A DNA stretch of 64,000 nt from an uncultured Actinomycetes bacterium (GCA_963731625.1 CAVSWH010000021.1:96108-160107), one strand, 5' to 3'. Counted from the first letter of the stretch, positions 45,866 through 61,785 are shown. Translations and numbers: made by a program. The notes: generated from the letters alone by a model not told the origin.

Positions 45866-45938
45866 GCCGGGATAGCTCAGTCGGCAGAGCAGCTCACTCG
45901 TAATGAGCAGGTCAAGGGTTCGAGTCCCTTTCCCGGCT
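45866..45938 (+). tRNA. tRNA-Thr (anticodon CGT)
   Basis: The 73-nt sequence forms a cloverleaf: GCCGGGA TA GCTC AGTCGGCA GAGC A GCTCA CTCGTAA TGAGC AGGTC AAGGG TTCGAGT CCCTT TCCCGGC T. All stems pair. It lies 16 nt after the holB stop. Confidence 0.9.
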
Positions 45939-46060
45939 CCCAGGCTTTCGCTCTGACGGTTCGCGGCGCGGGCCCGACACGTCACCGTTGCTCATCGTGT
46001 TCCCTCGTCCGCCCCGAGGCTGCCAGACGGTGCCGGGACTCGCCGCGCGTGCCCGGACCG

Positions 46061-46849
46061 CTACATCGTGAATCGGAGGTTGCGAGCCACCTGGTTGCCG
46101 AGCTTGTCGTCGCCGGTCCACTGGATCCGACGGGCGTCGATGACGACCTGCGGGTCGAGTCGACCGCACGCCAGCTGCACGAAGGTGAGGGAGTCGGTCG
46201 TGACCTCGACGTCGGGGCGCTCGAGCGTGTCGACGACCTTCGCCCGGCCCTCAACGGCGACGTAGAAGTCGCGCTGGAGGGGCCCAGTGAGGTGGATGGC
46301 GACGCTGTGGCCGTCCGGCACGCCGACCCGCTTGCCGATGATGTAGCCGAGCGAGCCCGCAACCTCGCCGAGGGCGATCTCGGCACGGCGCCCGGCGTCG
46401 TCGGTGGCCCGACCGAGCGGCGTCGTGATGTCGCGTTCGTGGACCCAGCAGTCGAAGACGCGGATCTTCATGAACCGTCCGTAGGGGTGGGGGCCGACCG
46501 GCGTCCACGAAGGCCGCCCGAGGTCGGCGGTGGTGAGCGCGGCCAGGTTGCGGCGCCGGGCGGCGAAGACGTCTTTCACTTGGGCGGTGAACTCCTCGGC
46601 GCTCGCGATCGCCGTGTCATCGGTGAACGCGCGCGCCGGGGCGAACGAGGGTGGAACGTCGGCGCGCTCGGGTAGCCAGTCCACGAGCACCGCCTCGATG
46701 CTTGCGAAGTGGCTGATTACGGCGCGGCTGTCCCACTCGGGGCACAGGGATTGCGCCGTCCATTCGGCCGGGCTGAGGTCGTCGCAGAGCGCCTCGATGG
46801 CCTCGAAGGACCCCTCCAGCGCGCCCAGGATCGTCGGCAGGTCGTTCAC
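46061..46849 (-). CDS. DinB-fold, mycothiol-dependent maleylpyruvate-isomerase-family protein
   Basis: 262 aa. The N-terminal pattern [23 protein letters not shown]...DCWVHERD is typical of the MDMPI/DinB N-domain, followed by a C-terminal SCP2-like part. Family assignment is from memory. Confidence 0.7.
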
Positions 46850-47511
46850 GGCGTTTCCTTTTGGATCGTGACCCAGTCACGAGCATCGACGTAGGGGCGG
46901 AACGTCTCGGCGATCTCGTGGAGGTCTCGGTGCTGCTTCGGCCGCTGGAGCTCGTAGAGGTGCGGGAACGCGAGCCAGCCGGTGACGAGCTCCCACAGCC
47001 GGATGGCGTCGGCGCCGGTCGGGGGCTCGATCAGGACGGGGCCGAAGAGGGCCTGGCTGTCGTCGAAGACCAATGTCGGCACGCCCCACCCGCCGAGGGC
47101 CGTCACCCGGTCGTGATCGGCCTTGACCTCGTCGTGGGTGCTCGGGTCGGCGATCGCGTCCCGAACGACCGCCGGACCGAGGCCGAGCTGCTCGACGAGG
47201 TGCTCGGCGACCTCACGTCGGTGGGGTTTGCGCCCGTCGACGTGCAGCGCGGTGCCCGCGAGCCAGTACCAGCGGTCCAGCAGGTCAGGGTCGAGGCGCC
47301 GCAAGTAGGCGCCAACGCGCATCATCGACCAGCCGTAGGACCAGTCGCGTTCCCATGGGTGCTTCTTCCCGTCCGCTCGGTTGATCTCCTCGAGACTGAA
47401 GAATCGCCAGCGGACCTCGACGCCGAGCTGGTCGCGCACGTCGCGCATCCACAGCGACGTCTGGTACGCCCACGGGCACATGACATCGAAGTGGAAGTCG
47501 ATCACCGTCAT
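46846..47511 (-). CDS. DsbA-like thioredoxin-fold protein with single-Cys CPWA motif
   Basis: ATG 47511 gives [19 protein letters not shown]..., and [10 protein letters not shown] near the C-terminus is the DsbA-like cis-Pro loop context. Its stop overlaps the downstream start by 4 nt. Confidence 0.7.
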
Positions 47512-47734
47512 AGTCCGACATGGTGACGCGTCTGGTGACCGGACGACCACCCCGGTCTCGCGGGCGAGCGCGTGCCGTCATCCTGCGGCCGAACGCCATA
47601 GTTCCCGCGGGGGTCGCACGAGGGTGGGGACGCGGGACAGTGAGGGCCCCGCTCGACGATCGGAGACGTCACGTGGCCCGCGCGGTCGCACGCGTGAGCT
47701 GCGAAGGATCGGCGATCGCGATTCGTCGACCTAT

Positions 47735-47771
47735 GCAGGTCAAGGGTTCGAGTCCCTTTCCCGGCTCCCAG
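47735..47771 (+). repeat. copy 2 of the tRNA-Thr 3' part (att-like)
   Basis: 37/37 identical to 45907-45943 (variable loop through ...GGCTCCCAG). The 5' two-thirds of the tRNA are absent. Confidence 0.9.
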
Positions 47772-48073
47772 TCTCGCGACCTGCTACAACGCGCGTCGGA
47801 CTTGGTTCGACGCCCGCTGGGTTCGCTTGCACAGCGCTCAGACAGCGGATCACTCGACCCATAGTTGGCAGGAGACTCGGCTGGGTTCGCTCGCTGCGTT
47901 ACGCTGCGTCACGGAAGGGCGCGGTGGAGTTAGCGACGGGTGCTACCGCTCTTCTGTTGCCGAGTTGGGACGTGTCGGCAAGCCTTGGTAGTGCGCTGGA
48001 GCATCGGTCGGCCGTGCGAGCCGTGTGTGCGAGACTCTGGTGCTCTCTCGGCAGGAAAGTGAGGGGCGGGATC

Positions 48074-51000
48074 ATGTCTTCGTCGGTGACGGCGACGTTC
48101 GTGTTCACGGATCTCGTCGACTCGACCGCGACCGCGGCAGGTCTGGACCACGATGCGGCTGAGGAGCTGCGCCAGACCCATTTTCGGCTACTCCGAGGCG
48201 CCGTGGCGGGGTCGGGCGGTACGGAGGTCAAGAACCTCGGGGACGGGTTGATGGTGATGTACTCGTCGTCGAGCCCCGCGGTGGCGGGCGCGGTGGCGAT
48301 GCAGCAGGCGATCGAGCATCACAACCGCTCGGCCGAACATCCCCTTGGGGTGCGGGTCGGGATGAGTGCCGGAGAGGCGGTCGAGGAAGACGGCGACTAC
48401 TTCGGTGACCCAGTCGTGGAAGCGGCTCGTGTCTGTGCGTTGTGCGACGGTGGCCAGATTGTGGTCACCGAAATCGTGAGGTTGATGGCCGGGCGACGCA
48501 TCACGCATCCGTTCACCGAGTTGGGCGACCACGAGCTAAAGGGTCTTCCGGATCCGGTTCCGTTGTTTGAGGTCGGTTGGGTTCCCGCCGGGGAGATCAC
48601 GGTGGGCATTCCGCTCCCGGATCGCTTGGAGACGGATAGTTCGACCGCTTTGTTCGGGTTCCTCGGACGCCAGCGCGAGAAGATGCAGCTCTTCGACGCG
48701 GTCAAGAGCGCGACAACAGGCAGCCGTCAGGTGGCGTTCTTGTCGGGTGAGCCAGGCATCGGCAAGACGTCGCTGTGTCGACAAGTCGCGCAGCGTGCGC
48801 GCGAACTAGACGTGTGCGTGTTGTACGGGCGATGCGATGAGGATCTCGGGGTCAGCTATCAGCCCTTCGGCGAGGCGCTGTCGCATTTGGCTATCCATGC
48901 CAACGAACAGCTCCTCGAACAACACGTCGCTGACCATGGCGGCGCGCTTCTGGCTCTGGTCCCGGCCCTGTCGAAGCGCCTGCCCGACACGACCGAGATG
49001 CAGAGTGCCGATCCCGATACCCAACGCGAGCGTTTGTTCAACGCGGTGGTGGGTTTGTTGGCAGCCGCGGCGGCCGACCACGGATTGTTGCTGGTGGTCG
49101 ATGACCTGCATTGGGCTGACAAGGCAACGTTGCAGCTGCTCCGTCATGCCGCGACATCACATCAGTTGGCCAAGGTGATGATCCTCGGCACGTATCGGGA
49201 CTCCGACCTCTCAGCGAATAACCCGTTGTCCGACGTGTTGGCCAGCTTGCGCCGCGAGGGCGACGTGCAGCGCATCGACCTCGTCGGTCTCGATGACCTC
49301 GAAGTCATCGAGATGATGGAGGCCGCCGCTGGCCACGAGATGCCGGAAGAGGGCGTCGCGCTGGGCCACGCCGTGCGGCAAGAGACCGAAGGCAATCCGT
49401 TCTTCACTGCGGAGATGCTCATACACCTCGGTGAATCGGGGCTCGTTCGCCAAGACGAGACCGGCCGCTGGGTCGCGACCGACGACCTGTACGAACAAGG
49501 ACTGCCTCAGAGTGTCCGCGAGGTGGTTGGCCAGCGCATCGACCGGCTCGGCGACGAGCACCGCCGAGTCTTGTCGCAGGCAGCCGTGATCGGCCGCGAC
49601 TTCGACGTCGAACTCCTCGCGATGGTGGCCGACATCGACGAGGACCACCTGCTCGATCTTCTCGACCAGGCGGGCGCCGCCGGTCTCGTGACCGAGGTCG
49701 AGGGCGCGGTCGACCGATTCAGTTTCACCCACGCTCTGACCCAACACACGCTCTACGACGATCTCGGCGCCAGTCGGCGCGCCCGCGCTCATCGCAGGAT
49801 TGCCGAAGCGCTCGAAACGCTGTGCGGCGCTACGCCACAAGCACGGGCCGGGGAGTTGGCGCGGCACTTCGTTGGCGCGACCAAGGCCGCCGACATCGCT
49901 AAAGCGCTCGAGTACACGCAAATGGCTGGCAATCAGGCGCTCGCCCAGCTCGCCCCCGCCGACGCGCTCGGCTGGTTCGCCCAAGCCCTCGACCTCCACG
50001 GTCAGTCCCCGTCCGACGGGGTCGTCCAGTGCGATCTGCTCATCGGGCTGGGCACAGCGCAACGGCAAACCGGCGACCCCGCGCACCGTGAAACGCTGCT
50101 CCAAGCGGCGAACATCGCCAAGAGCCTCGGAGACACCGAGCGCCTCGTACAAGCCGCGCTGGCGGGCAGCCGCGGCGGCAGTGCCAGCAGGGCCGGACAG
50201 GTGGACAGCGAGCGTGTCGCGGTACTGGAAGACGTGCTGGATGCCATCGGCACCGACGACAGCGAAATCCGAGCTCGTCTCCTCGCGATGCTTGCCGTCG
50301 AGCTGTCGTACAGCGGTCAACGTGAACGCATCGCCGCACTTATCAACGAGAGCATGACCGTGGCGCGCCGCCTCGACGATCCGCTCGCGTTCCTACGGGC
50401 CGCCAGCGCCTACGGCGCCATTACACTTCCCGAGAACCTTGATGCGCGGCTGGTCGACCTCGCGGAGGCCTTGTCGACCGCGGCGGCCATTGGGGACCCG
50501 AGCGCGAGCTTTGACGCAAACTACAGTCGAGCGCTCGCATGCTTCCAGGCGGGGAACCGAGCCGCGCTTGAAGCCCACCTCGATGCGTGCGCGTCGCTTG
50601 CTGAGCAGCTCGACCGACGCTTGGAGCGCTGGATGGTCACCGGAACGCGCTCAGAGCTGTGCGTGATCTCCGGTGATCTCGACGCCGCCGAAGAGCTCGC
50701 GAACGACGCGTTGACGGTCGGGGCCGACAGCGTCCCCGAAGCGCTCACTACCTGGGGTGGCCTGCTCCTCGAGATCCGGGACGTGCAGGGTCGGTTGGGA
50801 GAGATGGTCGAGGTCCTCGAGCAAGCTGCCGTCGAGAATCCCGGCCTTCCGATCCTGCGCGCTGCGCTCGGCCGCACCTACTGCGAACTCGATCGCCCCG
50901 CCGACGCGCTTGCCCTCATCCAGGCCGACGTCAACGACAAGTTCGCAAAGTTCGAATACGACAACGCTTGGCTCACCGCCATGGCTCTCATGGCGGACGT

Positions 51001-51370
51001 CTGCGTCCAACTCGAACAGCACGACGTCCTGCCGCTGCTGTACGAGCAGTTGGGTGCGTGGCATGCCCAATGGACTGCGCTCGGCCCGGCTGCACGAGGT
51101 CCAGTGGCGCTCTATCTCGCGATGCTCGCTGGCGCACTCGATGACTACGACCGCGCTGAACGGCACTTCAATCAGGCGTTCGACATGAGCCAAAACCTAG
51201 AGGCCCCCTACTGGACCGCTCGTACCCAATACGAGTGGGCCAAGGTGCTCCGAAGACGCCATGAGGACACCGACGAACCCCGCGCGGCGAAATTGCTGAC
51301 GAGCGCGACCAATGCTTCAAACCAGTACGGTTTCACCGCCCTGGCGCAACGCGCCGACTCGCTTCTCTAA
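48074..51370 (+). CDS. class III adenylate/guanylate cyclase domain + P-loop STAND-type NTPase + TPR-like helical repeats
   Basis: ATG 48074 is preceded by GGAAAGTGAGGGG. The 1098-aa product has a cyclase domain (FVFTDLVDST...GDGLMVMY...VRVGMSAGEA...GDPVVEAAR), Walker A GEPGIGKTS, Walker B LLLVVDDLHWAD, and about 600 aa of helical repeats. There is no C-terminal HTH. The 5' 231 codons of track ORF 47381..51370 run across att copy 2 and are not coding. Confidence 0.85.
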   Translation: MSSSVTATFVFTDLVDSTATAAGLDHDAAEELRQTHFRLLRGAVAGSGGTEVKNLGDGLMVMYSSSSPAVAGAVAMQQAIEHHNRSAEHPLGVRVGMSAGEAVEEDGDYFGDPVVEAARVCALCDGGQIVVTEIVRLMAGRRITHPFTELGDHELKGLPDPVPLFEVGWVPAGEITVGIPLPDRLETDSSTALFGFLGRQREKMQLFDAVKSATTGSRQVAFLSGEPGIGKTSLCRQVAQRARELDVCVLYGRCDEDLGVSYQPFGEALSHLAIHANEQLLEQHVADHGGALLALVPALSKRLPDTTEMQSADPDTQRERLFNAVVGLLAAAAADHGLLLVVDDLHWADKATLQLLRHAATSHQLAKVMILGTYRDSDLSANNPLSDVLASLRREGDVQRIDLVGLDDLEVIEMMEAAAGHEMPEEGVALGHAVRQETEGNPFFTAEMLIHLGESGLVRQDETGRWVATDDLYEQGLPQSVREVVGQRIDRLGDEHRRVLSQAAVIGRDFDVELLAMVADIDEDHLLDLLDQAGAAGLVTEVEGAVDRFSFTHALTQHTLYDDLGASRRARAHRRIAEALETLCGATPQARAGELARHFVGATKAADIAKALEYTQMAGNQALAQLAPADALGWFAQALDLHGQSPSDGVVQCDLLIGLGTAQRQTGDPAHRETLLQAANIAKSLGDTERLVQAALAGSRGGSASRAGQVDSERVAVLEDVLDAIGTDDSEIRARLLAMLAVELSYSGQRERIAALINESMTVARRLDDPLAFLRAASAYGAITLPENLDARLVDLAEALSTAAAIGDPSASFDANYSRALACFQAGNRAALEAHLDACASLAEQLDRRLERWMVTGTRSELCVISGDLDAAEELANDALTVGADSVPEALTTWGGLLLEIRDVQGRLGEMVEVLEQAAVENPGLPILRAALGRTYCELDRPADALALIQADVNDKFAKFEYDNAWLTAMALMADVCVQLEQHDVLPLLYEQLGAWHAQWTALGPAARGPVALYLAMLAGALDDYDRAERHFNQAFDMSQNLEAPYWTARTQYEWAKVLRRRHEDTDEPRAAKLLTSATNASNQYGFTALAQRADSLL

Positions 51371-51653
51371 GCAACCCACCGCCACCCACCGAATTCTCAT
51401 GCGGGTATCCAAGGTTGCGGCGTCGGTGACGCACACCGACCCTTCCGTTCACCTCGGTCGCCTCTCGCCGGGTCCGCCGTTTCGAGCCCCGTGTCTCTCC
51501 TGGTGTGGTCATTCGAAGAGCGGTCGAGAGCACTCGACCCCCGAACCCGCAGCCGTGAGCCGCCACAGCAGATAACTCGGTCGCCGTCGCTCGGCCGGCA
51601 TCGGCCTGCCACGGCGCATCGCGGCCGGTAGTACATCGCTGGCTGTTGGATTG

Positions 51654-51699
51654 CTCGTAATGAGCAGGTCAAGGGTTCGAGTCTCTTTCCCGGCTCCCA
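51654..51699 (+). repeat. copy 3 of the tRNA-Thr 3' part (att-like, starts in the anticodon loop)
   Basis: 45/46 identical to 45897-45942. The single mismatch is at 51684. Confidence 0.9.
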
Positions 51700-52086
51700 A
51701 CGTCATGACCAGCGCGTTCGCGATGCAGCGTCACGCGATCGGGTGACGAACGCCGAGCACAGCACTCGTACAGCGGCTCATGTGTCGCGCGGCCCCCCCT
51801 GCGTTTGTCGCTACGTCGGCTCCGGGGGTGCGATCACGTCGATTGGTACGGCGGTGGCGTATTCGACGTTGACCCGCAACGTCGCCCCGACGGGCAGCGC
51901 AGTGGAGTCGTCTTCTTCGATCAGGTCGTTTCGCTCGGTGTTCGTGGAGCCGGCGGGTACGGGAAGCTGTGCGCTGGTACCAGCACGTCGTTGGGGTGCA
52001 ACCCGCGAACGAGACCGCGAACTCGTGTGCCCTGACCGCGACGGGGAATGACAGCCTCGACGCGAACAATCCGCTGCTTGGCGCGC

Positions 52087-52107
52087 TCGAGTCCCTTCCC
52101 GGCTCCA
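52087..52107 (+). repeat. copy 4 of the tRNA-Thr 3' part (short, degenerate)
   Basis: tcgagtcccttcccggctcca matches 45920-45942 except for two single-base deletions. It is supported by the conserved box at the same downstream offset as the other copies. Confidence 0.6.
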
Positions 52108-52470
52108 ACGACGGCGACCGGCGACGACGCGCAGTTGGTTGGCGGGCCGCACAGCTAGCCGGGTGGCGCAGCGCTCGTTGAGCAGATCAGTCGATTACCC
52201 GCGACCACGTGAGCGATGTGGGGTATCGCCCTGCTCGAGATAGTTGAGGTTTGGTTTCGACCCGACGTGGGGTGTCGAGCCAACGGGCGGACGGCTCTGC
52301 AACTCGGCGTGCGCTCCGCATGCCCTACGGATCCACGTCTGCGGTCCGACCGGCCGCCCGGACCTGTTTAGCCGGCCTTCATCTAGGATGGCGCCACGTC
52401 GTGAAGGTCGAAGCGTGGGTTGACGAGGGCGCAGCGATCCACCTCCGCCAGTGCAACGAATGGATGCAGG

Positions 52471-52929
52471 ATGACCGGTGACCCGCTCGATCAGCTCGGA
52501 CCCGTCGATTTCATCATTGTCGAGTTCCCTGAAGGAGAACGTAACTTCACGGGGGAGGCAGCCAACGAGTTGGTCGCGCTCGTCGAGGCGGGGTCTATCC
52601 GTGTTATCGACGTTCTGATCCTCATGAAGGACCAGGACGGCACCGTTGAGGCCATGGAGTTGTCCGACCTCGATGACCTCGGACCATTCGAGGCGCTCGA
52701 GGTCGAGCTCGCCGAGTTCCTTGCCGAAGATGACGTCGAACACCTCGCTGCCGCGATGGATCCCGGAAGTGTCGCTGGTGTCCTCGTCTACGAGAATGTG
52801 TGGGCCGCGCCGTTCGCGTCGGCCGTCCGCCGTGCGGGCGGCCAGTTGATCGCGAATGGCCGCATTTCCCCCCAGGCGATCATCGCCGCCCTGGAGGCGG
52901 ACGAAGCGCTCGAATCAAAAGGAGCCTGA
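52471..52929 (+). CDS. DUF6325-like protein
   Basis: ATG 52471 gives MTGDPLDQLGPVDFIIVEFPEGERNFTGEAANELVALVEAGSIRVIDVLILMKDQDGTVEAMEL... This matches my memory of the actinobacterial DUF6325 pattern (GPVEYIVVEFPG...F.GEI...L..LV..G.IRIIDL). Confidence 0.6.
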   Translation: MTGDPLDQLGPVDFIIVEFPEGERNFTGEAANELVALVEAGSIRVIDVLILMKDQDGTVEAMELSDLDDLGPFEALEVELAEFLAEDDVEHLAAAMDPGSVAGVLVYENVWAAPFASAVRRAGGQLIANGRISPQAIIAALEADEALESKGA

Positions 52930-52930
52930 C

Positions 52931-53095
52931 ATGCCACTTGGACCCGGACGTCGAGGACGAGTCGGAGTGGTCCGCGCGCCCGTAGCGAAGGCCGCCGTCG
53001 TGACCAGAGCCGTCACCCCTGGGCCTTCGCCCGTTGCAAAGGCAGCAGTCGTTGGTGCAGCCGTGACACCTGGCCGGCGTCGCCGGCGAATTTGA
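52931..53095 (+). CDS. small Ala/Val/Gly-rich protein with internal duplication
   Basis: ATG lies 1 nt after the upstream stop. The 54-aa product contains VAKAAVVTRAVTPG and VAKAAVVGAAVTPG, encoded by DNA that differs mostly at synonymous positions. This suggests selection on the peptide. Confidence 0.4.
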   Translation: MPLGPGRRGRVGVVRAPVAKAAVVTRAVTPGPSPVAKAAVVGAAVTPGRRRRRI

Positions 53096-53149
53096 GTTCG
53101 CCCCTAATGTCCGGGCGCGAGGGGACACCCACTATGAGTCGATCCGCTT

Positions 53150-54310: not shown

Positions 54311-54459
54311 CCGGCGTGTCGCGCCACAGTGGATTTGTGGAACCTCGAGCCGCTCTCCAGCGGATCACTCGGATGCCCGTCGCTCATCCGTGATCGGCAT
54401 TCCGCCGGGGCGTGGCGGCGGTCAGCACAGCGCTCGGCGCTGGGACCGTTCCTAAATAT

Positions 54460-54495
54460 GCAGGTCAAGGGTTCGAGTCCCGTTGCCGGCTCCCC
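54460..54495 (+). repeat. copy 5 of the tRNA-Thr 3' part (att-like)
   Basis: 33/36 identical to 45907-45942. It has the same left junction TATG|CAGG as copy 2. Confidence 0.85.
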
Positions 54496-54799
54496 GCCTC
54501 GTCTGATGAGCGACGACGCGCCTCGCGAAGTACCGCCGTCGGCAGGCTCCTTCGCCCAGCGCTCTCACAGGCGAATTAGTCGTCCCCGATGTCCGTGCTT
54601 GCGTGGTCGGACCCCTGATTCACTGCGGTGCGGATAGCGAAGGAGAGGGCAGTCGGCAGAGCTGCCAACCAGGCGACCTTCTGCGCGGCCGTGGACGACG
54701 GCCAACGGCGTCACAGCCGGCCGGTGGAGGCAGCCGCGAAATACGTCCCCTAGTCTGGCTCGCGTGGCGTCGTAGCCACTCGATCGCGAGGGGATTGCC

Positions 54800-56218
54800 G
54801 TGAGCGTGGTCGCGCATCCGAGTGTCGAAGATCGCCGAGCGCAGGGGAAGGCTGCACGCGATGTGGTGGCCCCGTCGGGTCATACGGGATGGAAGCCTGC
54901 CGCGGGCCGGCCCGACCCCGTTGCGCTGCTCGAGGAACAGAACACGACTCGGGAGCCGGATCTGGTGCCGGTCCGTCATGGCCGAATGATGGTCTCGCCG
55001 TTCACGTTCTATCGGGGTGCGGCGAAGATCATGGCGTCCGACCTGAAGGACACGCCGAGGGCGGGACTCAACGTCCAGCTGTGCGGCGACGCGCACCTGT
55101 CGAACTTCGGTGCATTCGCGTCACCGGAGCGAACGTTGCTGTTCGACCTGAACGACTTCGACGAGACGCTTCCCGGGCCGTTTGAGTACGACGTCAAACG
55201 GATGGCGGCGAGTTTTGCGATCGCGGCGCGCAACAATGGCTTCAAGAAGGCCGACGAGCGCGCCGCGACGCTTGCCTCAGTGTCGGCGTATCGACAGGCG
55301 ATGGCCGAGTTCGCCGACATGCGCACGCTGGACATCTGGTACTCGCGCATCACCGAGGCGGACGTGTTAGGCGCCGTGAACCAGATCGCGCAGTCGGTGA
55401 AGAGCAAAGCCGACAAGCGCTTGGCCAAGAACGCGGCCGCAACGGCGGAGAAGGCACACACCCGTGACAGCCTGCAGGCCTTGTCGAAGCTCGCGGAGCG
55501 CGTCGACGGCCAGTATCGGATCGTCAGCCAACCCCCGATCGTTGTCCCCGCACGCGACATCGAAGCGGCATTCGGTGTCTCGCCCGGGGAGGTCGAGCGA
55601 ACCATCCACGACCAGTTCCGGGCCTACCGGGCCACGTTGCAAGCCGACCGGCGGGAGCTATTGGAGCGGTTCGAGGTCGTCGACATGGCCCGCAAGGTCG
55701 TGGGCGTCGGCAGCGTCGGCACTCGAGCGTTCATCGTCCTCTTGCAGGGCCGCGATCAGCAAGATCCGCTGTTCCTGCAAGTCAAGGAGGCGACCGCCTC
55801 GGTTCTTGAGGACCACCTGCCCAAGAGCCGTTTTCGGCAACCCGGCGAGCGAGTCGTGGAAGGTCAGCGCATGATGCAGGCGGCGAGCGACATCTTCCTG
55901 GGCTGGACTAAAGGCGTCGAGGCCAATCGGTACCTGTATTGGCGGCAGCTTCGCGACATGAAGGGCTCGGCGGCCGTCGAAACCCTCACACCAACCGGGC
56001 TGTCCTTTTACGGGGGTATCTGCGGCCAAACACTGGCGCGTGCCCACGCCCGCTCCGGCGACCCGATCGCCCTCGCGGCATACCTCGGCAAGAAGGATCG
56101 GTTCGACGAGTCGATCACTGACTTCTCGGAGAGGTACGCCGACCAGAACGAGCGCGACTACCAAGCCTTCACGGCAGCTGTCCGATCCGGACGCCTCGAA
56201 GCACGCGAGGGCCTCTGA
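54800..56218 (+). CDS. DUF2252-family protein
   Basis: 472 aa. The run LVPVRHGRMMVSPFTFYRGAAKIMASDL...QLCGDAHLSNFG...LFDLNDFDET matches my memory of the DUF2252 signature region. Confidence 0.8.
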   Translation: MSVVAHPSVEDRRAQGKAARDVVAPSGHTGWKPAAGRPDPVALLEEQNTTREPDLVPVRHGRMMVSPFTFYRGAAKIMASDLKDTPRAGLNVQLCGDAHLSNFGAFASPERTLLFDLNDFDETLPGPFEYDVKRMAASFAIAARNNGFKKADERAATLASVSAYRQAMAEFADMRTLDIWYSRITEADVLGAVNQIAQSVKSKADKRLAKNAAATAEKAHTRDSLQALSKLAERVDGQYRIVSQPPIVVPARDIEAAFGVSPGEVERTIHDQFRAYRATLQADRRELLERFEVVDMARKVVGVGSVGTRAFIVLLQGRDQQDPLFLQVKEATASVLEDHLPKSRFRQPGERVVEGQRMMQAASDIFLGWTKGVEANRYLYWRQLRDMKGSAAVETLTPTGLSFYGGICGQTLARAHARSGDPIALAAYLGKKDRFDESITDFSERYADQNERDYQAFTAAVRSGRLEAREGL

Positions 56219-56297
56219 CCGAGCCGCACCAGCGGCCACGCCCAGCGTTGATGACTAGGGACAGTGGTGTCGTGGCGGCGAGCCGATCTACGTTTGC

Positions 56298-56460
56298 GTG
56301 ATGGACGCGCCCAACGTGTTGCTGATCATGACGAACGAGTAGCGGTACCCGCCGCCGTACGAGACCGATGCAGCGAAGACGTTCCGTCAGAAGTACCTCC
56401 CAGCGCCCGAACGCGACGCCGAGCGACGCCCTCCTGCACGCCGCAACACCGCCGGCTGAA
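56298..56460 (+). pseudogene. sulfatase N-terminal remnant with in-frame TAG
   Basis: Reads VMDAPNVLLIMTNE*RYPPPYETDAAKTFRQKYLPAPER. PNVLLIMT(D/N)(E/Q) is the sulfatase N-terminal metal-site strand. TAG at 56340-56342 sits where Gln/His is expected. No sulfatase body follows, because the MFS gene starts at 56527. Confidence 0.35.
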
Positions 56461-56526
56461 ACCACGCACCCTCGGTCGGCGCCGCCAAGCTGAGTGTCAC
56501 GCGCCCACATTGACCCACACGCCACG

Positions 56527-58194
56527 ATGACGGATACGACGATGAGGACGGAACAGGCCGTGAGCGGTGCGGCCAAGGCGGTCCTCGTCACATTGGCGGC
56601 TGCGCAGTTCGTAATGATTCTCGACGCGTCGGTGATGAACGTGTCGATCGCGACCGTCGCGAAGGACCTGGGGACGACGGTTACCGGGATCCAGACCGCG
56701 ATCACGATGTTCACGTTGGTGATGGCGGCGTTGATGATCACCGGTGGCCGGATGGGCGCGATCTTGGGACGCAAGCGTGCCTTCTCGATCGGCTGTGTGA
56801 TCTACGCGTGCGGTTCGTTGACGACGGCCGTCTCTCCCAATCTCGGCGTGTTGTTGTTCGGCTGGTCGTTCCTCGAAGGAGTCGGCGCTGCGCTTGTCAT
56901 GCCGGCGATCGTGGCGTTGGTGGCCTCGAACTTCGCCAAACCTGATCGGCCCCGCGCGTACGGGATCGTGGCCGCCGGGGGCGCCATCGCCGTGGGGGTC
57001 GGTCCGCTCATCGGTGGGTTGTTCACCACCTATTGGTCGTGGCGGTACGTGTTCGTCGGTGAGGCGCTCGTGATCGGCGTGGTCCTGCTCCTCAACCGCC
57101 GCACGGCCGACACGCCCAAGGAGGAAGGCGCGCGTCTCGACCTGGTCGGTACGGCGCTGTCGGCGCTGGGGCTGGGCCTGATCGTCTACGGGATCCTCCG
57201 GTCGGGGACCTGGGGACTCGTGCAACCCAAACCGGATGCGCCGACGTGGTTGGGGCTCTCGCCGGTGATCTGGTTGGTGCTTGGTGGCGGAGCGGTCCTG
57301 GTGGGGTTCCTGGAGTGGGAGAAGCACCGGCGGGACGTGGGCAAGCCCGCGCTGCTCGACCCCGCGATCTTGCGGGTCCGTCTGCTCCGCAGCGGGCTCA
57401 CCGCGTTCTTCTTCCAATTCTTGCTCCAGGCCGGCCTGTTCTTCGCGGTGCCGTTGTTCCTGTCGATCGCGCTCGGCCTCTCCGCGATCGAGACCGGCGT
57501 CCGGGTTCTGCCGTTGTCGATCACCTTGGTGATCGCTGCCGTCGGGATCCCCAAGGCGTTTCCACACGCGTCACCGCGGCGCGTGTCCCAGCTCGGGTTC
57601 CTCGCGCTGTTCCTCGGCCTCGTCGTGTTCGTCGCCGCGCTTGACGCCGGCGCCGGCGCCGAGATCACCACCTGGCCGATGATCCTCGGCGGCTTGGGTA
57701 TCGGCGCCCTCGCATCGCAGCTCGGCGCCGTGACCGTCTCTGCCCTGCCCGACGAGCAAAGTGGCGAGGTCGGCGGGCTCCAGAACACCTTTAGCAACCT
57801 CGGTATCTCGCTCGGTACCGCGTTGTCCGGCGCGGTTCTGATCTCAGCGCTGACCGCCTCTTTCTTCACTGGCATCCAGAACAACCCCGCGGTGCCCAAA
57901 GACCTCACCTCCAAGGCCCAAACGCAGCTCACCAGCGGCGTACCGTTCATCTCCGACGCCGACCTCCAAGCCGCGCTCAAAGACGCCGGCGTCACCGGCT
58001 CGACTGCCACCGCAATCGTCGACGCAAACGCGCAGGCCCGCCTCGACGGCCTGCGCGCCTCCCTGTCGCTCCTCGCTGTGCTCGCGCTGATCGCGCTCCT
58101 CTTCACCCGCGGACTCCCCACCACCCCGGTCGGAGCCGAGGAGACTGAATCCGCCGATCCGCTGGCCCAGCAACAAGAGGTGCACGGTCCGTGA
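56527..58194 (+). CDS. MFS transporter, 14-TMS DHA2/EmrB-like
   Basis: Start at ATG 56527 (MTDTTMRTEQ...). It has LDASVMNVSIATVAKDLG (DHA2 motif), GGRMGAILGRKRAF (motif A-like) and many TM helices. Confidence 0.9.
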   Translation: MTDTTMRTEQAVSGAAKAVLVTLAAAQFVMILDASVMNVSIATVAKDLGTTVTGIQTAITMFTLVMAALMITGGRMGAILGRKRAFSIGCVIYACGSLTTAVSPNLGVLLFGWSFLEGVGAALVMPAIVALVASNFAKPDRPRAYGIVAAGGAIAVGVGPLIGGLFTTYWSWRYVFVGEALVIGVVLLLNRRTADTPKEEGARLDLVGTALSALGLGLIVYGILRSGTWGLVQPKPDAPTWLGLSPVIWLVLGGGAVLVGFLEWEKHRRDVGKPALLDPAILRVRLLRSGLTAFFFQFLLQAGLFFAVPLFLSIALGLSAIETGVRVLPLSITLVIAAVGIPKAFPHASPRRVSQLGFLALFLGLVVFVAALDAGAGAEITTWPMILGGLGIGALASQLGAVTVSALPDEQSGEVGGLQNTFSNLGISLGTALSGAVLISALTASFFTGIQNNPAVPKDLTSKAQTQLTSGVPFISDADLQAALKDAGVTGSTATAIVDANAQARLDGLRASLSLLAVLALIALLFTRGLPTTPVGAEETESADPLAQQQEVHGP

Positions 58195-58283
58195 CGCGTT
58201 GACGGACCGTCGGGGAGCCGCGGCGATGACGCCGAGTAGCCTTCCGGACGCAGGGATGGGGATGGCGTGCACCTCGACGTCAC

Positions 58284-59518
58284 ATGGTGAGGGCGGGTCG
58301 CGCCCGGTTGGTGCGTGCGGCCGTCTGTGGGATCGTGCTATCCGTCGTCGCCCTCGTGGTGCCGGTCACGACCGCGCGCGGGCCCGAGCCGAGGCGTGGG
58401 TGGCGGCGTGGAGCTCCAGCCCACAGGGAGCGTTCCCGCTCCCAGTTCCCCCTCGGAGTGCCACAACGAGGGGCGCATCAACGAGCACCGTCACGGTGCG
58501 CGAGTTCATCCATCCGAGCGTCGGCGGGAACGGCGTGCGGGTCCGTCTGACCAACGAGTTCGGCACGACGTCCCTGTGGATGGTGTCGGCGACGCTCGCC
58601 GCCGTCGACGCTGGCGGGGTGGTGCCGGGCACCCTGCACGCGCTGACGGTAGGCGGCCGTTCCGAGATCTCCATCCGCCCGGGTGGCACGGCGCTGACGG
58701 ATCTGGTGCCGTGGACGGTTGACCCGTCGAGCGAGATGGCGGTGAGTCTCGCCATCCGCGCGGGCAGCACCGACGCAACCGAGAACATCGACGCCCAGCA
58801 GCGCAACCTCGTTGCGTACGGGGATCGGGTGTGGCAACGGTCGGATCGGGCGTTCCGGCCCGTCACGGCCTGGCCCTGGGTCTCGGATCTCGAAGTCCGG
58901 CGGCCCGTGCCGAGCCACACCGTCGTTGCGTTCGGTGACTCGCTCACGAGCGGTCTGGGCTCGAGCCTCAACCGCAACGATCGTTGGCCGGACCGCCTGG
59001 CGCGCCGCCTCGACGCCCGACCCGACAACGGCGTCTCGATTGTGAACGCGGGGATCGTCGGCAACCAGCTGCTGGCGTCCACCACCTTGAGCCCGAGCGC
59101 CGTGTCTCGGGTCGGCCAAGACGCGCTCGACCAGCCCGGTGTGCGGACAGTGATTCTCCTCGAGGGCGTGAACGACCTGAACAGCCCGAACCCCCCGAAC
59201 GTCGTGGCCTTGGTGGCGGGCTACCGCCGAGTCGTGGCTGACGCGCACGCCCGCGGCGTCCGGGTCATTGTCTCGACGATCCTCCCGTTCGGCGGCTACG
59301 AGGTGTGGACGCCGGAGCGAGAGCTCGAGCGCGACGCGATCAATCGCTGGATCACGACGAGCGGCGCCTTCGACGGGGTCGTCGACCTGGCGGCCGCGGT
59401 CGCCGACCCGGCCGCGCCTGACCAGCTCGCGGCTCGCTTCGACAGCGGCGACCACCTGCACCTCAACGACGCGGGCTACGTCGCGCTCGCCGCCGCGATC
59501 CCGCTGCGAGGGCTCTAA
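58284..59518 (+). pseudogene. secreted SGNH/GDSL hydrolase with the reading frame broken in a (CG)4 run
   Basis: The signal peptide MVRAGRARLVRAAVCGIVLSVVALVVPVTTAR is in the frame of track ORF 58284..58550. The catalytic body is in the frame of track ORF 58199..59518 (AEAWVAAWSSSPQ..., VVAFGDSLTSG, NAGIVGN, LLEGVNDL, DHLHLND). The frames meet at cgcgcgcg 58373-58380. Confidence 0.7.
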
Positions 59519-59595
59519 CCGCATTTCCGGCCAGAACGGACGATTGCGTCCCGTCCGGGCGTTATCGCGGGGCCTGGTGGCCGTTTTGCACGTAG

Positions 59596-61527
59596 ATGTC
59601 GTGTCCCGACGTGGCCTCATCGTCGACCCGGCGGCACCGTCTCCCGTACTCAGCAGGGATCGACGGCCTGCGTGCCGTCGCGGTGCTGGCGGTGATCGTG
59701 TTCCACGCGGGCGCACCGTGGCTCCCCGGGGGCTTCCTCGGCGTCGACGTCTTCTTTGTCATCTCCGGGTTCCTCATCACCTCGCTCCTGTTGAGCGAGC
59801 ACCGATCGAACGGCCGAATCGGTTTCGGCGGCTTCTGGTCGCGCCGAGCCCGTCGTCTGCTCCCTGCCCTGCTGGTGCTGCTCGGCGTCATGGCCCTGTG
59901 GGCCCGCACGTCGTGGCCCGACCCGGTCCAGCTGCATGCGTTCCCCGGCGACGCCCTCGCCTCGCTCGCCTATGTGGCCAACTGGCATTTCGCCGCGCAG
60001 GGCACGAGCTACTTCACCCAGTTCAGCGCGCCGAGCCCGCTCCAGCATCTGTGGAGTCTCGCGATCGAGGAGCAGTTCTACTTGCTGTGGCCGCTGGCCC
60101 TCGCGGCGTTCCTCGCGGTGCGCTCGCTCGGGCGGCGTGGGCTGCTCGTCCTGGCCCTCGCCGGTGCGGGTGTGTCGATCGCCTTGATGGCGCTGTGGTA
60201 CAGCCCGACGAACCCCTCGGCCGTGTACTTCCAGACCGACACCCATGCGTTCGGGCTGCTCTTCGGTGCCGCGGCCGCGCTCCTCGTCGCCGGGCCGCTC
60301 GGCGAGCGTGTCCGGCGGGCGTGCGCGGTCGTCGCGCCCCTCGCCCTCGGCGGGCTCCTGGCGTGCCTCTTGCTGGTCGACGGCCGTCAGGCGTTCGCGT
60401 ATCAGGGTGGGATCGCGCTCGCCTCGTTCCTGACCGTGCCCGTCGTGGTGGCTGCCTCCCGCCCCGGCGTCGTCACCACCGTGCTCGCGCGCCGGCCGCT
60501 CGTGCGGATCGGGCTCATCTCGTACGGCTTGTACCTGTGGCACTGGCCGATCTGGACGATCCTCACCGACGCCCGCCTCGGGGTCGACTGGTTCGACGGG
60601 ACGGTGATCCGCGCCGGGCTGCTGCTCGCGACGACGCTCGCCTCGTACTGGCTCGTCGAGCGGCCGGTCCGTCACGGCGTGGCCCGCGGCTGGACCGTGC
60701 GACTGGCGACCCCGCTCGTGGTCGGCGGTGTCGCGGCGGCTGTCGTGACCGCGCCGATCGCGCCGCCCGTGTTCACGCCCCCGGTGCAGGTGTCCGCCGC
60801 GACGGCGAGCCGTCAGCCGCCCGTGCACGAGGCGCCCCGGGTCCTCATCGTCGGCGACTCGACGGCAGCGTCCGCCGCGATCGGCTTCATCGATGTCGCA
60901 AGGGCGTCCTACATCGTCGTCCCGGCCGGCATGCCGCCCAAGACGCCCGGCTCGTACTGCCCGCTCGACATCTGGTCCGATGCCGTCCGCGAGACGCCCG
61001 GCGACGTCAAGGTGCACCCGCCCTCGCCGGAGTGTGAGTGGCCGGTGAAGTTCCCGCCCCTGGTGCAGGCCTTCGACCCGTCCGCCGTGGTGGTGATGTG
61101 GAGCCTCTGGGACGGCATGCCCCACCGTGTGAACGGGCAGTGGCTCGAGGTCGGAACACCGGGTTGGGCCGCCGAGCTCACCGCCGCGGCGGACTGCGCG
61201 ATCAGCATGCTCAGCGTGAACGGCGCGCGGGTCTACTTCGCGCTCGCGCCGCCCATGGTCCAGCAGCCCTTCTGGCAGACGGAGGCGCTGGACTCGGTCT
61301 ACGAGGCCGTGGCGGCGGCGGACCCGAACCGGGTCGGCATCATCGACGACCGCAACACCATCCAGAACGGCGGCCCCGGCTACCGGTGGGACGGGATCCA
61401 CTACACGGTCGCGGGCGCCGACGTGCTCGCCACGGCGGCGCTGCCGACGCTCGAGGAGGCGATCACCGGGCCGCGGCTCCCCCCCGCGCCACCAGCGGCG
61501 TGTCAGCCACCGTCGGCCAGTCCCTGA
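59596..61527 (+). CDS. acyltransferase-3 (OafA/YrhL-type) membrane O-acyltransferase with C-terminal SGNH-like domain
   Basis: 643 aa with GIDGLRAVAVLAVIVFHAG...GVDVFFVISGFLIT...HLWSLAIEEQFYLLWP, about 10 TM helices, and a C-terminal extracytoplasmic domain starting VLIVGDSTAAS. Confidence 0.85.
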   Translation: MSCPDVASSSTRRHRLPYSAGIDGLRAVAVLAVIVFHAGAPWLPGGFLGVDVFFVISGFLITSLLLSEHRSNGRIGFGGFWSRRARRLLPALLVLLGVMALWARTSWPDPVQLHAFPGDALASLAYVANWHFAAQGTSYFTQFSAPSPLQHLWSLAIEEQFYLLWPLALAAFLAVRSLGRRGLLVLALAGAGVSIALMALWYSPTNPSAVYFQTDTHAFGLLFGAAAALLVAGPLGERVRRACAVVAPLALGGLLACLLLVDGRQAFAYQGGIALASFLTVPVVVAASRPGVVTTVLARRPLVRIGLISYGLYLWHWPIWTILTDARLGVDWFDGTVIRAGLLLATTLASYWLVERPVRHGVARGWTVRLATPLVVGGVAAAVVTAPIAPPVFTPPVQVSAATASRQPPVHEAPRVLIVGDSTAASAAIGFIDVARASYIVVPAGMPPKTPGSYCPLDIWSDAVRETPGDVKVHPPSPECEWPVKFPPLVQAFDPSAVVVMWSLWDGMPHRVNGQWLEVGTPGWAAELTAAADCAISMLSVNGARVYFALAPPMVQQPFWQTEALDSVYEAVAAADPNRVGIIDDRNTIQNGGPGYRWDGIHYTVAGADVLATAALPTLEEAITGPRLPPAPPAACQPPSASP

Positions 61528-61750
61528 CGCGGCGCGGCGTTTCGCCCCCAGCCTCGACGCCCCGCCCGACCGGTCGCGCCGCACGGGCCGACGACCGACG
61601 CGGCCGAGGCTTCCGGCGGGAGTGATTTCCTGGGGTTCGGCACGAAGGGAACCCCGACAGCAAAGAACTCGGACGCCGTCGCTCGACCGTGGCCGTATCC
61701 CGCCCGTCGCTGCGGCAGCTGGCGCAGCCGCTCGGTGCTGAGTTGCTCGC

Positions 61751-61785
61751 CAGGTCGAGGGTTCGCGTCCCTCTCCCGGCTCCGA
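61751..61785 (+). repeat. copy 6 of the tRNA-Thr 3' part (most diverged)
   Basis: caggtcgagggttcgcgtccctctcccggctccga is 31/35 identical to 45908-45942. The T-arm still pairs (GAGGG/CCCTC). Confidence 0.6.

Follow-up and report, generated by a model that had tools for sequence, protein, structure and literature searches.

A tRNA-Thr-anchored island in an uncultured actinobacterial lineage, probably grown by serial integration of one element family and since eroded

In the 64-kb stretch of DNA analysed here (the window), a 16-kb region behind an intact tRNA gene is punctuated by copies of the 3′ part of that gene, and no recombinase is found in it. How was such a region assembled? A sequence-only reading of the window had proposed that related elements integrated one after another into a single tRNA and that a conserved box lies in the element arm, and our analysis supports it: 45.9–61.8 kb is likely a tRNA-anchored island, formed by repeated integration of one lineage-specific element family into the anticodon loop of tRNA-Thr(CGT). 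The reading that fits best is serial integration with later decay, in the manner of CIME-like or tycheposon-like island growth. Island building of this kind is already known; here it concerns an uncultured soil actinobacterial lineage.

Copies of the tRNA 3′ part delimit the segments

The tRNA-Thr(CGT) gene lies downstream of topA (41402–44050), tmk and holB (44753–45850), topA and holB being identified by Pfam. The crossover site is its anticodon loop, CTCGTAA. Copies of its 3′ part are all on the + strand: 47735–47771 is exact, 51654–51699 runs from the anticodon loop onward with one mismatch, and the others are at 52087–52107 (truncated, one indel), 54460–54495 and 61751–61785. A 26-mer of the tRNA 3′ part, searched with at most three mismatches, gave five matches versus 0.00 expected. 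A 470-nt nhmmer module profile, made from 41 non-window modules, all from relatives, gave six matches in 64 kb, all on the + strand and corresponding to the tRNA and the five copies; the match on the tRNA (45897–45946) ends at model position 378. The region thus has an intact tRNA at one end and segments delimited by same-orientation 3′ repeats, which occur nowhere else in the 64 kb.

ARAGORN, the 26-mer search and the profile together confirm the tRNA and its five copies as first described. The sequence-only reading was also correct in giving two copies, numbered 2 and 5 and located at 47735 and 54460, the common left junction TATG|CAGG, and in describing the DNA between copies as less GC-rich than the core: GC is 0.645–0.675 over 47–58 kb versus 0.70–0.78 in the core, and is lower across the younger segments of the array.

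The box is the right arm of a larger module

The 11-mer GCNCAGCGCTC is found exactly at 47829, 52166, 54425 and 54554, and site 51757 reads GCACAGCACTC. The claim that it follows four copies holds exactly at 47829, 52166 and 54554, and is slightly wrong at 51757 because GCACAGCACTC differs by one mismatch. A second shared sequence, CAGCGGATCACTCG, had been placed at 47843–47856 and 54358–54371 and indeed starts at 47843 and at 54358. Scoring of the box against shuffled controls had been suggested. A PWM made from 40 right boxes of other genomes gave 40.5 bits at 52166, 36.8 at 47829 and 27.7 at 51757, that is, 28–40 bits against a random maximum averaging about 7 (best score in 50 Markov-shuffled windows: mean 7.0, sd 3.2, maximum 13.8). 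The box at 54554 has a 1-nt insertion and is detectable only by gapped methods. Neither the PWM scan nor the nhmmer profile found a recognisable box after the genuine tRNA, in agreement with the sequence-only reading.

The same reading had described a box of about 29 nt. This box does not stand alone; it is the right arm of a module about 0.25–0.5 kb long, in which conserved motifs flank the core in the order M2, M1, tRNA 3′ half from the anticodon loop, spacer, M1-M2. In attP, the left arm carries M2 (CAGCTGATAACTCGG), a CTTCCGyTC motif and M1 (GGTGAGCACAGCGCTC), the core starts at CTCGTAA and holds the tRNA 3′ half in full, and the right arm is made of TGACCAGCGAC, about 30 nt, then M1-M2. 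M2 resembles tRNA positions 20–35. Profile scores are 29–170 bits for the window modules versus 210–380 in relatives.

Segments, junctions and cargo of the window

The features of the region are as follows.

45866–45940, + strand: intact tRNA-Thr(CGT), attL-side target (ARAGORN)
45941–47719, no strand: segment 0 (Pfam, GC3, nhmmer, motif scan)
46061–46849, − strand: mycothiol maleylpyruvate-isomerase-like gene, segment 0 (Pfam)
46846–47550, − strand: Rv2466c/DsbA-like gene, segment 0 (Pfam)
47720–47859, + strand: junction module c1 (PWM 36.8 bits; nhmmer 74.7 bits over 47735–47859, model 339–462)
48074–51370, + strand: cargo 1, 1098-aa protein with adenylate/guanylate-cyclase, AAA_16 STAND ATPase and TPR (Pfam)
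51555–51784, + strand: junction module c2 (PWM 27.7 bits; nhmmer 169.9 bits over 51555–51781, model 230–456)
51790–52088, + strand: frameshifted gene fragment, amino acids ~234–338 of 415 (tblastn with L004 8486–9733, E 1e-15)
52087–52198, + strand: junction module c3 (PWM 40.5 bits; nhmmer 62 bits, model 352–464)
52420–54310, + strand: cargo 3 (Pfam)
52420–52929, + strand: DUF6325, cargo 3 (Pfam)
~53162–53270, + strand: universal-stress-protein C-terminal fragment, cargo 3 (Pfam)
53579–54310, + strand: unannotated ORF, cargo 3 (no Pfam annotation)
54350–54583, + strand: junction module c4 (nhmmer 72.8 bits, model 228–460)
54800–61527, + strand: cargo 4 (Pfam, GC3)
54800–56218, + strand: DUF2252, cargo 4 (Pfam)
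56494–58194, + strand: MFS transporter, cargo 4 (Pfam)
58199–59518, + strand: GDSL lipase, cargo 4 (Pfam)
59596–61527, + strand: AT3 acyltransferase with SGNH domain, cargo 4 (Pfam)
61657–61788, + strand: terminal junction c5, attR (nhmmer 29 bits, E 6e-8, model 240–377 only)

Segment 0 has a GC3 near the native level, and after the tRNA it shows no recognisable right arm, only a degenerate TGACGGTTCGCG (motif scan). In c1, the mutated crossover region (GATTC GTCGACC TATGCAGG) is followed by the tRNA 3′ part (47735–47771), a spacer and the right box M1-M2 at 47826–47856; cargo 1 behind it has a homologue in the array of relative L008 (37–53% identity). The best preserved junction module of the window is c2, with M2 (51565–51580) and a degenerate M1 (51626–51641) on the left, the junction GGATTG|CTCGTAA|TGAGCAGG with its overlap intact (51648–51668), and on the right the 3′ half of the tRNA, up to 51699, then the spacer TGACCAGCGCGTTCGCG and a right box at 51755–51784. 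The gene fragment at 51790–52088 belongs to a cargo-protein family recurring in the arrays of relatives; it is truncated at both ends and therefore represents a deleted cassette. The core of c3 is cut on the left by a deletion that left the T-loop and acceptor part (52087–52107), followed by a spacer and a strong right box (52164–52193). In c4, M2 (54358–54372) and M1 (54419–54435) precede a mutated crossover region (54444–54464), the tRNA 3′ part (54460–54495), a spacer and the right box with its insertion (54552–54582). The extra 11-mer listed by the sequence-only reading at 54425–54435 (GCACAGCGCTC) is present, and is M1 of this left arm.

Cargo 4 has a GC3 close to native and is presumably the oldest segment. 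Beyond it, c5 has M2-like (61658–61672) and M1-like (61719–61733) motifs, the junction GAGTTG|CTCGC, whose overlap has lost 7 nt, and the tRNA 3′ part to 61785; left arm and core are there and the right arm is not, as expected for a terminal attR. Arms are thus found on both sides of internal repeats (c2 and c4, model 228–460), and c5 covers 240–377 only. Four of the five junctions have a damaged crossover region, through mutation at c1 and c4 and through deletion at c3 and c5. Together with the fragment at 51.8–52.09 kb, the Usp fragment, the low module scores and the missing tRNA-proximal right arm, this marks the window array as a largely dead, eroded form.

Relatives carry the integrase and a circular form

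The relatives are uncultured Acidimicrobiia-like Actinomycetota with the same topA-tmk-holB-tRNA-Thr(CGT) locus and variable content. Six were selected by holB (L003–L008): all have the same holB-tRNA-Thr locus, and the content after the tRNA is different in every one. Five (L003, L004, L006, L007, L008) carry arrays with mostly unrelated cargo, and L005 carries an integrase. In the integrase-free arrays of relatives, modules stand 0.9–11 kb apart. A pattern scan of metagenomes gave 36 more module-containing stretches, a set in which module conservation is biased upward because the pattern required an intact junction. Neither an empty site nor a relative sharing the right flank of the window was seen among the relatives examined, and the right-flank protein of the window has no homologues at E ≤ 1e-40.

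In intact relatives (L005, L009, L011, L013), the gene of a 310-aa Xer-like tyrosine integrase starts 6–7 nt after the box, and integrase homologues (70–89% identity) lie directly after a full tRNA-Thr(CGT) on every contig with enough upstream sequence. The layout TTGnAC-N17-TAAnTT-N6-GTG occurs in these four and in L060/L061. The integrase also directly follows the tRNA in L056–L061, of which L056–L059 were read for tRNA adjacency and box start only. The sequence-only reading had advised looking for more core-plus-box modules and a recombinase beside one; relatives have both, and in them alone, not in the window, a cognate integrase adjoins the att site. That the box follows the tRNA and precedes the start codon of the integrase supports its assignment to the element arm. 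One family member has CRISPR-Cas genes immediately downstream of the integrase.

L012 is a circular contig of about 14.5 kb (127-nt terminal overlap), 100% identical to the element integrated in L011, and the homology breakpoint between the two is inside the anticodon loop. The attP of this excised circle matches profile positions 240–456 and has the module layout, and the element has genes for a large terminase and for an excisionase-like protein. Serial integration is supported by this circular form, to whose attP the window modules are homologous, and by the armless right side of c5.

The box had been interpreted as an arm-type site. The family integrase, an Xer-like protein of two domains, gave no match to an arm-binding N-terminal domain, and the box is therefore probably not a classical arm-type site. 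In intact relatives it is located within 40 nt immediately upstream of int, and M1 and M2 may bind the integrase or a regulator and overlap a leaderless int promoter; a sigma-70 consensus scan gave no support to the promoter reading of the box. A XerC/XerD chromosome-dimer resolvase was considered and rejected, with 147 and 141 bits versus cutoffs of 335 and 330, and a gene placed beside a tRNA att site within a mobile element, not in a dif context.

The direct orientation of the copies, their proximity to the tRNA and the 37/37 identity of c1 would also be compatible with a history free of mobile elements, in which the 3′ end of the tRNA, together with the sequence behind it, was duplicated locally or copied by gene conversion. 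We hold this to be very improbable: the genuine tRNA of the window lacks the box found at the copies, the left-arm sequence of the modules has no counterpart upstream of the tRNA, and their architecture is that of the attP of a circular, integrase-bearing element. Moreover, modules hold T-arm variants that differ from the host's own tRNA with base pairing kept, and the tRNA 3′ halves were therefore imported.

A strict integron or CALIN, with attC-like folded sites recombined by an IntI-type integrase, has next to no likelihood. The resemblance is superficial, residing in cassette arrays without adjacent integrase and cargo mostly in one orientation. The family integrase scores 57–62 bits on the integron-integrase model versus a cutoff of 265, and 33–38 bits versus 435 on a second NCBIfam model; it is not an IntI-type integrase with the integron-specific additional domain. 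The sites are not imperfect palindromes of 60–140 nt, and Rfam detects nothing beyond the tRNA itself; they appear to be tRNA-derived junctions of 0.25–0.5 kb, homologous to double-strand attP/attB sites with crossover in the anticodon loop, and attC-type sites were rejected.

Origin of the integrase-less segments

Under serial integration, each element would carry an attP made of left arm, core and right arm. Integration would restore the tRNA from the element's own copy and push the previous 3′ half inward, so that internal junctions would read left arm (new), core, right arm (old), and the outermost would be devoid of a right arm.

The absence of any recombinase frame over 45.9–64 kb, claimed by the sequence-only reading, stands: none was found by Pfam on all substantial ORFs of 44–64 kb or by a six-frame Pfam scan of 51.3–54.85 kb, and a family-specific integrase HMM (--max) left no trace at E ≤ 10 in the six-frame translation of the whole window. 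As integrase and element backbone are missing from all five segments, these would be CIME-like remnants or hitch-hiking cargo. The further claim that every integrase was later lost goes beyond this absence; across all loci searched, only two small integrase pseudogene fragments were seen (L048 and L031, both among the 36 metagenomic stretches), and we infer the order of events and how integrases disappeared.

Had integrase-bearing elements simply been stacked, some internal integrases would be expected, and their lack counts against serial integration. No integrase or backbone remnant was seen in the window or the six relatives' arrays, even at E ≤ 10; at about 50 internal junctions no intact integrase follows the right box, and all integrases seen are tRNA-proximal. 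In relatives, some cassettes span only 0.9–1.4 kb between complete modules, and module quality is no lower farther from the tRNA.

Alternatively, the integrase-less segments could be the mobile units themselves, each with its cargo and a full attP-type module (about 0.5 kb), inserted and excised by the integrase of a transient phage- or satellite-like helper of the same family. The helper would act in trans, or in cis after accretion, helper and cassette excising and travelling together. The tRNA-Thr locus would then resemble an integron platform with its integrase on a visitor. We regard this as rather unlikely for the segments, and as possible at the level of the clade that cassettes are moved by a helper-encoded integrase. 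It fits the seven arrays free of integrase and backbone remnants, the tRNA-proximal integrases and undiminished module scores along arrays, and also arrays that hold from 3 up to at least 6 complete modules and whose cargo is unrelated (spacing median 2.4 kb, minimum 0.9 kb), ~330 nt of left arm that are 75–90% conserved between cassettes of unrelated cargo, and, in the unbiased relatives, the exact anticodon-loop sequence at 12 of 15 internal overlaps. The same cargo families recur at different array positions (40–69% identity), and one 97%-identical array pair differs at 25/1076 nt in modules versus 62/1130 nt in cargo, a small sample affected by indels. Against it, the only circular form is the integrase-bearing L012, with no circular integrase-less cassette among the 36 metagenomic stretches, whose conserved junctions are inflated by the pattern used. 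Nor did a near-identical cassette turn up in two contexts. As the integrase fragments of L048 and L031 show, integrase-bearing elements gave rise to at least some segments, and with four of its five crossover regions mutated the window array is not serviceable now. The integron-like array serviced in trans, raised by the sequence-only reading, thus fails as integron family membership on integrase scores; as a working principle, the regular short cassettes hint at it.

Comparison with known systems

Serial integration followed by decay, our preferred reading, can be set beside several known systems. Integrons and CALINs share ordered small cargo units between conserved recombination sites, often with no integrase nearby; here, however, neither an IntI recombinase nor attC hairpins are involved, a tRNA gene takes the place of attI as anchor, and cassettes often hold several genes, on either strand. 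Integrases of the anticodon-loop class described by Williams in 2002 reportedly cross over in that loop, with an attP carrying the whole tRNA 3′ half. Our elements likewise cross over in the anticodon loop, of 7 nt, whose flanking inverted repeat is the anticodon stem, and restore the tRNA from their own copy, but the integrase is an arm-less Xer-like one and M1 and M2 are found on both arms.

The ssrA-specific islands of Dehalococcoides stand in tandem at one small-RNA gene and are delimited by its 3′-end repeats (PMC3146451), as are the tandem segments here. CIMEs and tandem accretion are known from ICESt1/ICESt3 in Streptococcus and from Streptomyces pathogenicity islands; a related incoming element integrates at one att site, and both can then excise and transfer as one composite (PMC5704250). 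The window segments are similarly integrase-less, with no recombinase and junction modules of one family on both sides. In contrast to those systems, conjugation genes play no part, up to five or more units are stacked, most att sites in the window are mutated, and the sole characterised intact member looks phage- or satellite-like.

Tycheposons of Prochlorococcus are tRNA-specific tyrosine-recombinase elements, cargo-carrying or phage-satellite-like, and in the islands of this host newcomers displace older elements inward, and partial tRNAs and integrase fragments remain dispersed across the island (Hackl et al., bioRxiv 10.1101/2020.12.28.424599). In a similar way, the family described here has a single tRNA as its target, one member that is satellite-like and carries a large terminase, another with CRISPR-Cas genes, and islands rich in partial tRNAs. 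The host phylum differs (Acidimicrobiia-like soil Actinomycetota), the integrase is of a short Xer-like type, the junctions keep a long conserved two-armed module, and the islands of relatives are unusually regular arrays of short integrase-less cassettes.

Copies of the tRNA-Thr 3′ part and of the box in the window

ARAGORN places tRNA-Thr(CGT) at 45866-45940 (+ strand), directly 3′ of topA (41402-44050), a tmk-like ORF and holB (44753-45850). A 26-nt probe (T-arm and acceptor end, ≤3 mismatches) matched at 45917, 47745, 51674, 54470 and 61760, all on the + strand and against 0.00 matches expected, and a weak sixth copy of the 3′ part was seen by sequence inspection at 52087-52107. This bears out the repeats described in a sequence-only reading of this DNA. 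The same reading had placed the 11-mer GCNCAGCGCTC behind four of the copies: it is exact at three of these positions (47829, 52166 and 54554), as well as at 54425, whereas the fourth, 51757, has one mismatch (GCACAGCACTC). A PWM built from 40 right boxes of relatives, thus carrying information of other genomes only, gave 40.5 bits at 52166, 36.8 at 47829 and 27.7 at 51757; the best scores in random windows averaged 7.0 (sd 3.2, n = 50), and the proposed box similarity therefore withstands a random control. Similarly, an nhmmer profile (470 nt, 41 modules, none from the window) found exactly six matches in 64 kb, the tRNA and the five copies.

Also as first described, the DNA between the copies is lower in GC (0.645-0.675 over 47-58 kb versus 0.70-0.78 elsewhere in the window), and HMM searches agree that it contains no detectable recombinase: none was found by Pfam among all substantial ORFs or in a six-frame scan of 51.3-54.85 kb, and a family-specific integrase HMM, used with filters off on six frames of the whole 64-kb window, returned nothing at E ≤ 10. 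Integrase remnants were also sought in the window by tblastn with four integrases and backbone proteins, and none were found. The right-flank protein (61793-63436, minus strand) has no homologues at E ≤ 1e-40.

Just one other patch of the window is low in GC (23254-26888, GC 0.665). It was considered as a second island at 24-27 kb and rejected: it carries a GlnR-like regulator and glutamine synthetase (glnA) and is core sequence. The glnA ORF is listed at 995 aa, and its true start is probably internal since the GS domains begin only at about residue 535. A tRNA-SeC(TCA) is present at 34599-34692 (minus strand), so the source organism probably makes selenoproteins.

Architecture of the junction module

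Scanning 185,579 species genomes with the core and box pattern retrieved one MAG, from an uncultured Actinomycetes bacterium, the match being situated at the orthologous holB-tRNA-Thr locus. holB homologues put the lineage among uncultured Acidimicrobiia-like Actinomycetota; the closest (95% identical) is carried on a 2.8-kb contig. The locus was compared across six holB-selected relatives (L003 to L008), using blastp because tblastx was swamped by high-GC compositional noise. A metagenome pattern scan contributed 36 further stretches, a set biased by the pattern itself. Alignment of 26 junctions placed the box within a conserved module that is much larger.

Elements of the junction module, in order, from the junction alignment
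Left arm, start: GTGGACAAC motif, preceding M2
Left arm, M2: CAGCTGATAACTCGG, after the GTGGACAAC motif
Left arm, between M2 and M1: CTTCCGyTCCC
Left arm, M1: GGTGAGCACAGCGCTC, then 12 nt ending in GATTG
Core: CTCGTAA TGAGCAGG..., from the first base of the anticodon loop to the tRNA 3′ end
After the tRNA end: TGACCAGCGAC..CGCG, then about 30 variable nt
Right box, at the right end of the module: M1 directly followed by M2, tAGCACAGCGCTCG ttGAGCAGATAACTCG

Two further details of the sequence-only reading are explained by this architecture. Position 54425, where an ‘extra’ GCACAGCGCTC had been noted, corresponds to the M1 in the left arm of c4, the fourth junction module counted from the tRNA, and the 14-mer common to 47843 and 54358 is M2, in one right-arm and one left-arm copy.

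The left arm is conserved over about 330 nt in many relatives. Rfam, run on three arrays, gave only the true tRNA, indicating no known RNA family in this arm, and the c1 module had no blastn match in phage and plasmid collections. An 88-nt ‘tRNA-Ser(gga)’ called by ARAGORN in a related stretch (L001 3177-3264) was rejected as a gene: it is a junction module in which a left arm adjoins the tRNA-Thr 3′ half, and such modules are a likely cause of false tRNA annotations in these genomes. Partial modules also occur, at 18065-18099 and 14782-14946 of L007. In the one, a left arm with 19 nt from the start of the core is joined to a Gly-rich gene; the other contains a left-arm fragment by itself. Both show rearrangement within a well-preserved array.

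The module is the attP of an integrative element

Homologues of one tyrosine recombinase (310-311 aa) are encoded immediately 3′ of tRNA-Thr(CGT) in L005, L009/L010, L011, L013/L014 and L056-L061. In intact elements the box fills the 40 nt before the int start, ending 6-7 nt before the GTG in the arrangement TTGnAC-N17-TAAnTT-N6-GTG (L005, L009, L011, L013, L060/L061; for L056-L059, the reading covers tRNA adjacency and the start of the box). One of these elements was also obtained as a circle: L012, a 14,620-bp contig with a 127-nt terminal overlap from a sample other than that of L011, is 100% identical, circularly permuted, to the element integrated in L011 (9875-20933). Homology between the integrated and circular forms starts at the anticodon loop. 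The attP of L012 comprises M2-like and M1-like motifs, core, spacer and M1-M2 directly before int, and aligns with positions 240-456 of the module profile. The module is an attP.

Besides an Xer-like integrase, the element encodes an excisionase-like HTH_17 (MerR-like) protein, a large terminase (phrog_9, E 1.7e-35), an 874-aa protein with a weak tape-measure match, and NYN-domain and AAA_25 proteins. It looks phage- or satellite-like and may be a phage satellite, because 14.5 kb is too small for a tailed phage.

The family integrase is an Xer-like enzyme of two domains. Scores on XerC/XerD models are 141-147 bits (cutoffs about 330), and of the solved structures that bear the name of a recombinase, XerD matches it best. 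Structure and family-model comparisons gave no match for an arm-binding N-terminal domain, which makes the proposed arm-type site unlikely, in the lambda sense of the term.

The box could instead have another role. Its halves M1 and M2 each recur separately in the left arm, and we infer putative integrase- or regulator-binding sites overlapping a leaderless int promoter. The putative -10 element TAAnTT fits the actinobacterial consensus TANNNT. A sigma-70 scan with an E. coli-type consensus did not call TTGCAC-N17-TAACTT and found no promoter within 45.8-55 kb of the window; the promoter in the box is thus kept as putative. M2 (CAGCnGATnACTCG; 47843-47856 and 54358-54371) also resembles tRNA positions 20-35 (CAGAGCAGCTCACTCG, 45885-45900), a stretch ending at the first four bases of the anticodon loop, with 15/16 matches in several relatives. 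In addition, scored with the box PWM, the 5′ half of the tRNA itself comes ninth among about 128,000 positions. On these two resemblances, it is tempting to speculate that M2 and the box are core-type-like sites.

Other occupants of such sites were observed. A 55%-identical, more distant integrase on an IMG/VR viral contig (L051, 9800-10000) adjoins the 3′ part of a different tRNA. There, TCTGACC lies just past the tRNA end, as it does after tRNA-Thr in the integrase family, which suggests a right-arm element conserved across tRNA specificities. In L009 (5028-15828), type I CRISPR-Cas genes (Cas3, a GSU0053-family Cas protein and Cas2) come after the integrase-bearing occupant of the tRNA-Thr site.

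The window carries an eroded array

Integration at the anticodon loop would yield B-O-P′ ... P-O-B′, and later integration into the restored tRNA would turn the older junction into P(new)-O-P′(old). Under serial integration, internal junctions are thus expected to have both arms, and the terminal junction to be devoid of the right arm. Profile matches in the window fit this prediction exactly.

Junction modules of the window, in order from the tRNA
c1, 47735-47859: profile positions 339-462, 74.7 bits; left arm lost
c2, 51555-51781: profile positions 230-456, 169.9 bits; both arms
c3, 52087-52198: profile positions 352-464, 62 bits; left arm lost
c4, 54350-54583: profile positions 228-460, 72.8 bits; both arms
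c5, 61657-61788: profile positions 240-377, 29 bits; left arm and core, ending at the tRNA end

The array is eroded. Its modules score 29-170 bits, compared to 210-380 in relatives, and the crossover overlap CTCGTAA is kept in c2 only: it is mutated in c1 (GTCGACC) and c4 (TTCCTAAA) and lost in c5, which is short by 7 nt there, while c3 is truncated inside the core. The genuine tRNA has no right arm, which we read as lost. Genes have decayed as well. The c2-c3 interval (51790-52088) is a frameshifted fragment truncated at both ends (aa ~234-338 of 415), whose cargo family is present in arrays of L003, L004, L007 and L008, and a C-terminal piece of a Usp gene is located near 53.2 kb. In function, the cargo belongs to ordinary accessory metabolism and regulation, comprising mycothiol-dependent enzymes, a cyclase-STAND-TPR protein, DUF6325, DUF2252, an MFS transporter, a GDSL lipase and an AT3 acyltransferase. 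GC3 of the distal segment is near native, consistent with this segment being the oldest. In the window, the next + strand start codon follows the box at a roughly constant distance (245-254 nt); this was treated as chance, the range being 180-475 nt in relatives.

Serial integration followed by decay accounts for both the 16 kb of accessory DNA and the absence of a recombinase. The segments are passengers of an integration hot spot, old and for the most part fixed, and the window itself is an ordinary decayed island.

Arrays in relatives

If integrase-bearing elements had been stacked, intact integrases or wrecks of them would be expected within the arrays. Across seven arrays (the window and L002-L008) neither was found, nor were backbone genes, and only two short integrase fragments occur in all loci (L048, aa 114-176, abutting a left arm; L031, aa 234-299). 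Every intact integrase is tRNA-proximal. These observations fit the main rival reading, which we nevertheless hold to be rather improbable and in which the tRNA-Thr(CGT) locus of the clade is a working gene-cassette platform and the window a decayed example. Each unit would be 0.4-7 kb of cargo with a complete attP-type module of about 0.5 kb but no integrase. Xer-like integrases would insert and excise these units and transfer them from cell to cell; they would be encoded on transient phage- or satellite-like helpers, which would always sit in the tRNA-proximal slot. Visiting helpers would shuffle the persisting units by accretion and cis-mobilisation (as CIMEs) or by trans action, an integron-like economy independently evolved on a tRNA anticodon-loop site. 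Inter-module distances in relatives (0.9-11.4 kb, median 2.4 kb), the lack of a gradient in module quality along arrays and left arms 75-90% identical beside unrelated cargo also speak for it. However, no integrase-less circle was detected by terminal overlaps, no near-identical cassette was found in two contexts, and the metagenome set is pattern-biased. As the sites of the window are mostly dead, this reading bears on the clade more than on the window, for which we retain serial integration and decay.

Some cargo is recurrent. An unannotated family of about 450 aa (40-53% identity) occupies different positions in the arrays of four relatives, in one case on the opposite strand, and a fragment persists in the window (51790-52088).

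Members of the ~450-aa cargo family
L003 17541-19034, minus strand
L004 8486-9733
L007 13399-14766
L008 11637-12868

A Gly-rich repeat protein is also recurrent (L007 18609-19991, L048 6091-7437, L002 2-721), and an IS element (rve-domain transposase and HTH domains) is inserted within the L003 array (16520-17491). The tRNA-Thr T-arm itself exists in several base-pair-compensated versions, CAAGG/CCTTT, CCGGG/CCCGT and CAGGA/TCCTT (sites: window 45912-45940, L003 11164, L048 7906, L009 4901). The version in a junction module is often not that of the host's own tRNA, implying that integration swaps the functional tRNA 3′ half between lineages.

Comparison with known systems

As far as could be found, an integrative-element family specific for the tRNA-Thr anticodon loop, with its attP architecture, was previously undescribed. 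What is new is the well-defined attP with a single target, tRNA-Thr(CGT), the uncultured soil lineage as host and the strikingly regular integrase-less arrays in relatives. The flexible genome of this soil actinobacterial lineage appears to accumulate at a single locus, and the conserved module, as pattern or profile, is a ready-made probe to map such islands in metagenomes. The clade-level pattern is worth following up. If the integrase-less cassettes are mobile, they would represent an independent origin of cassette-array logic outside integrons.

The system is not an integron. The family integrase reaches 57-62 bits on the integron-integrase model (cutoff 265), and the integron-like alternative of the sequence-only reading, taken as a true integron, is not borne out. 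The process in the window matches instead the growth of islands by Prochlorococcus tycheposons, where tandem tRNA integration leaves partial tRNAs and fragmented integrases (10.1101/2020.12.28.424599), and the formation and accretion of CIMEs, for which cis-mobilisation has also been described (PMC5704250).
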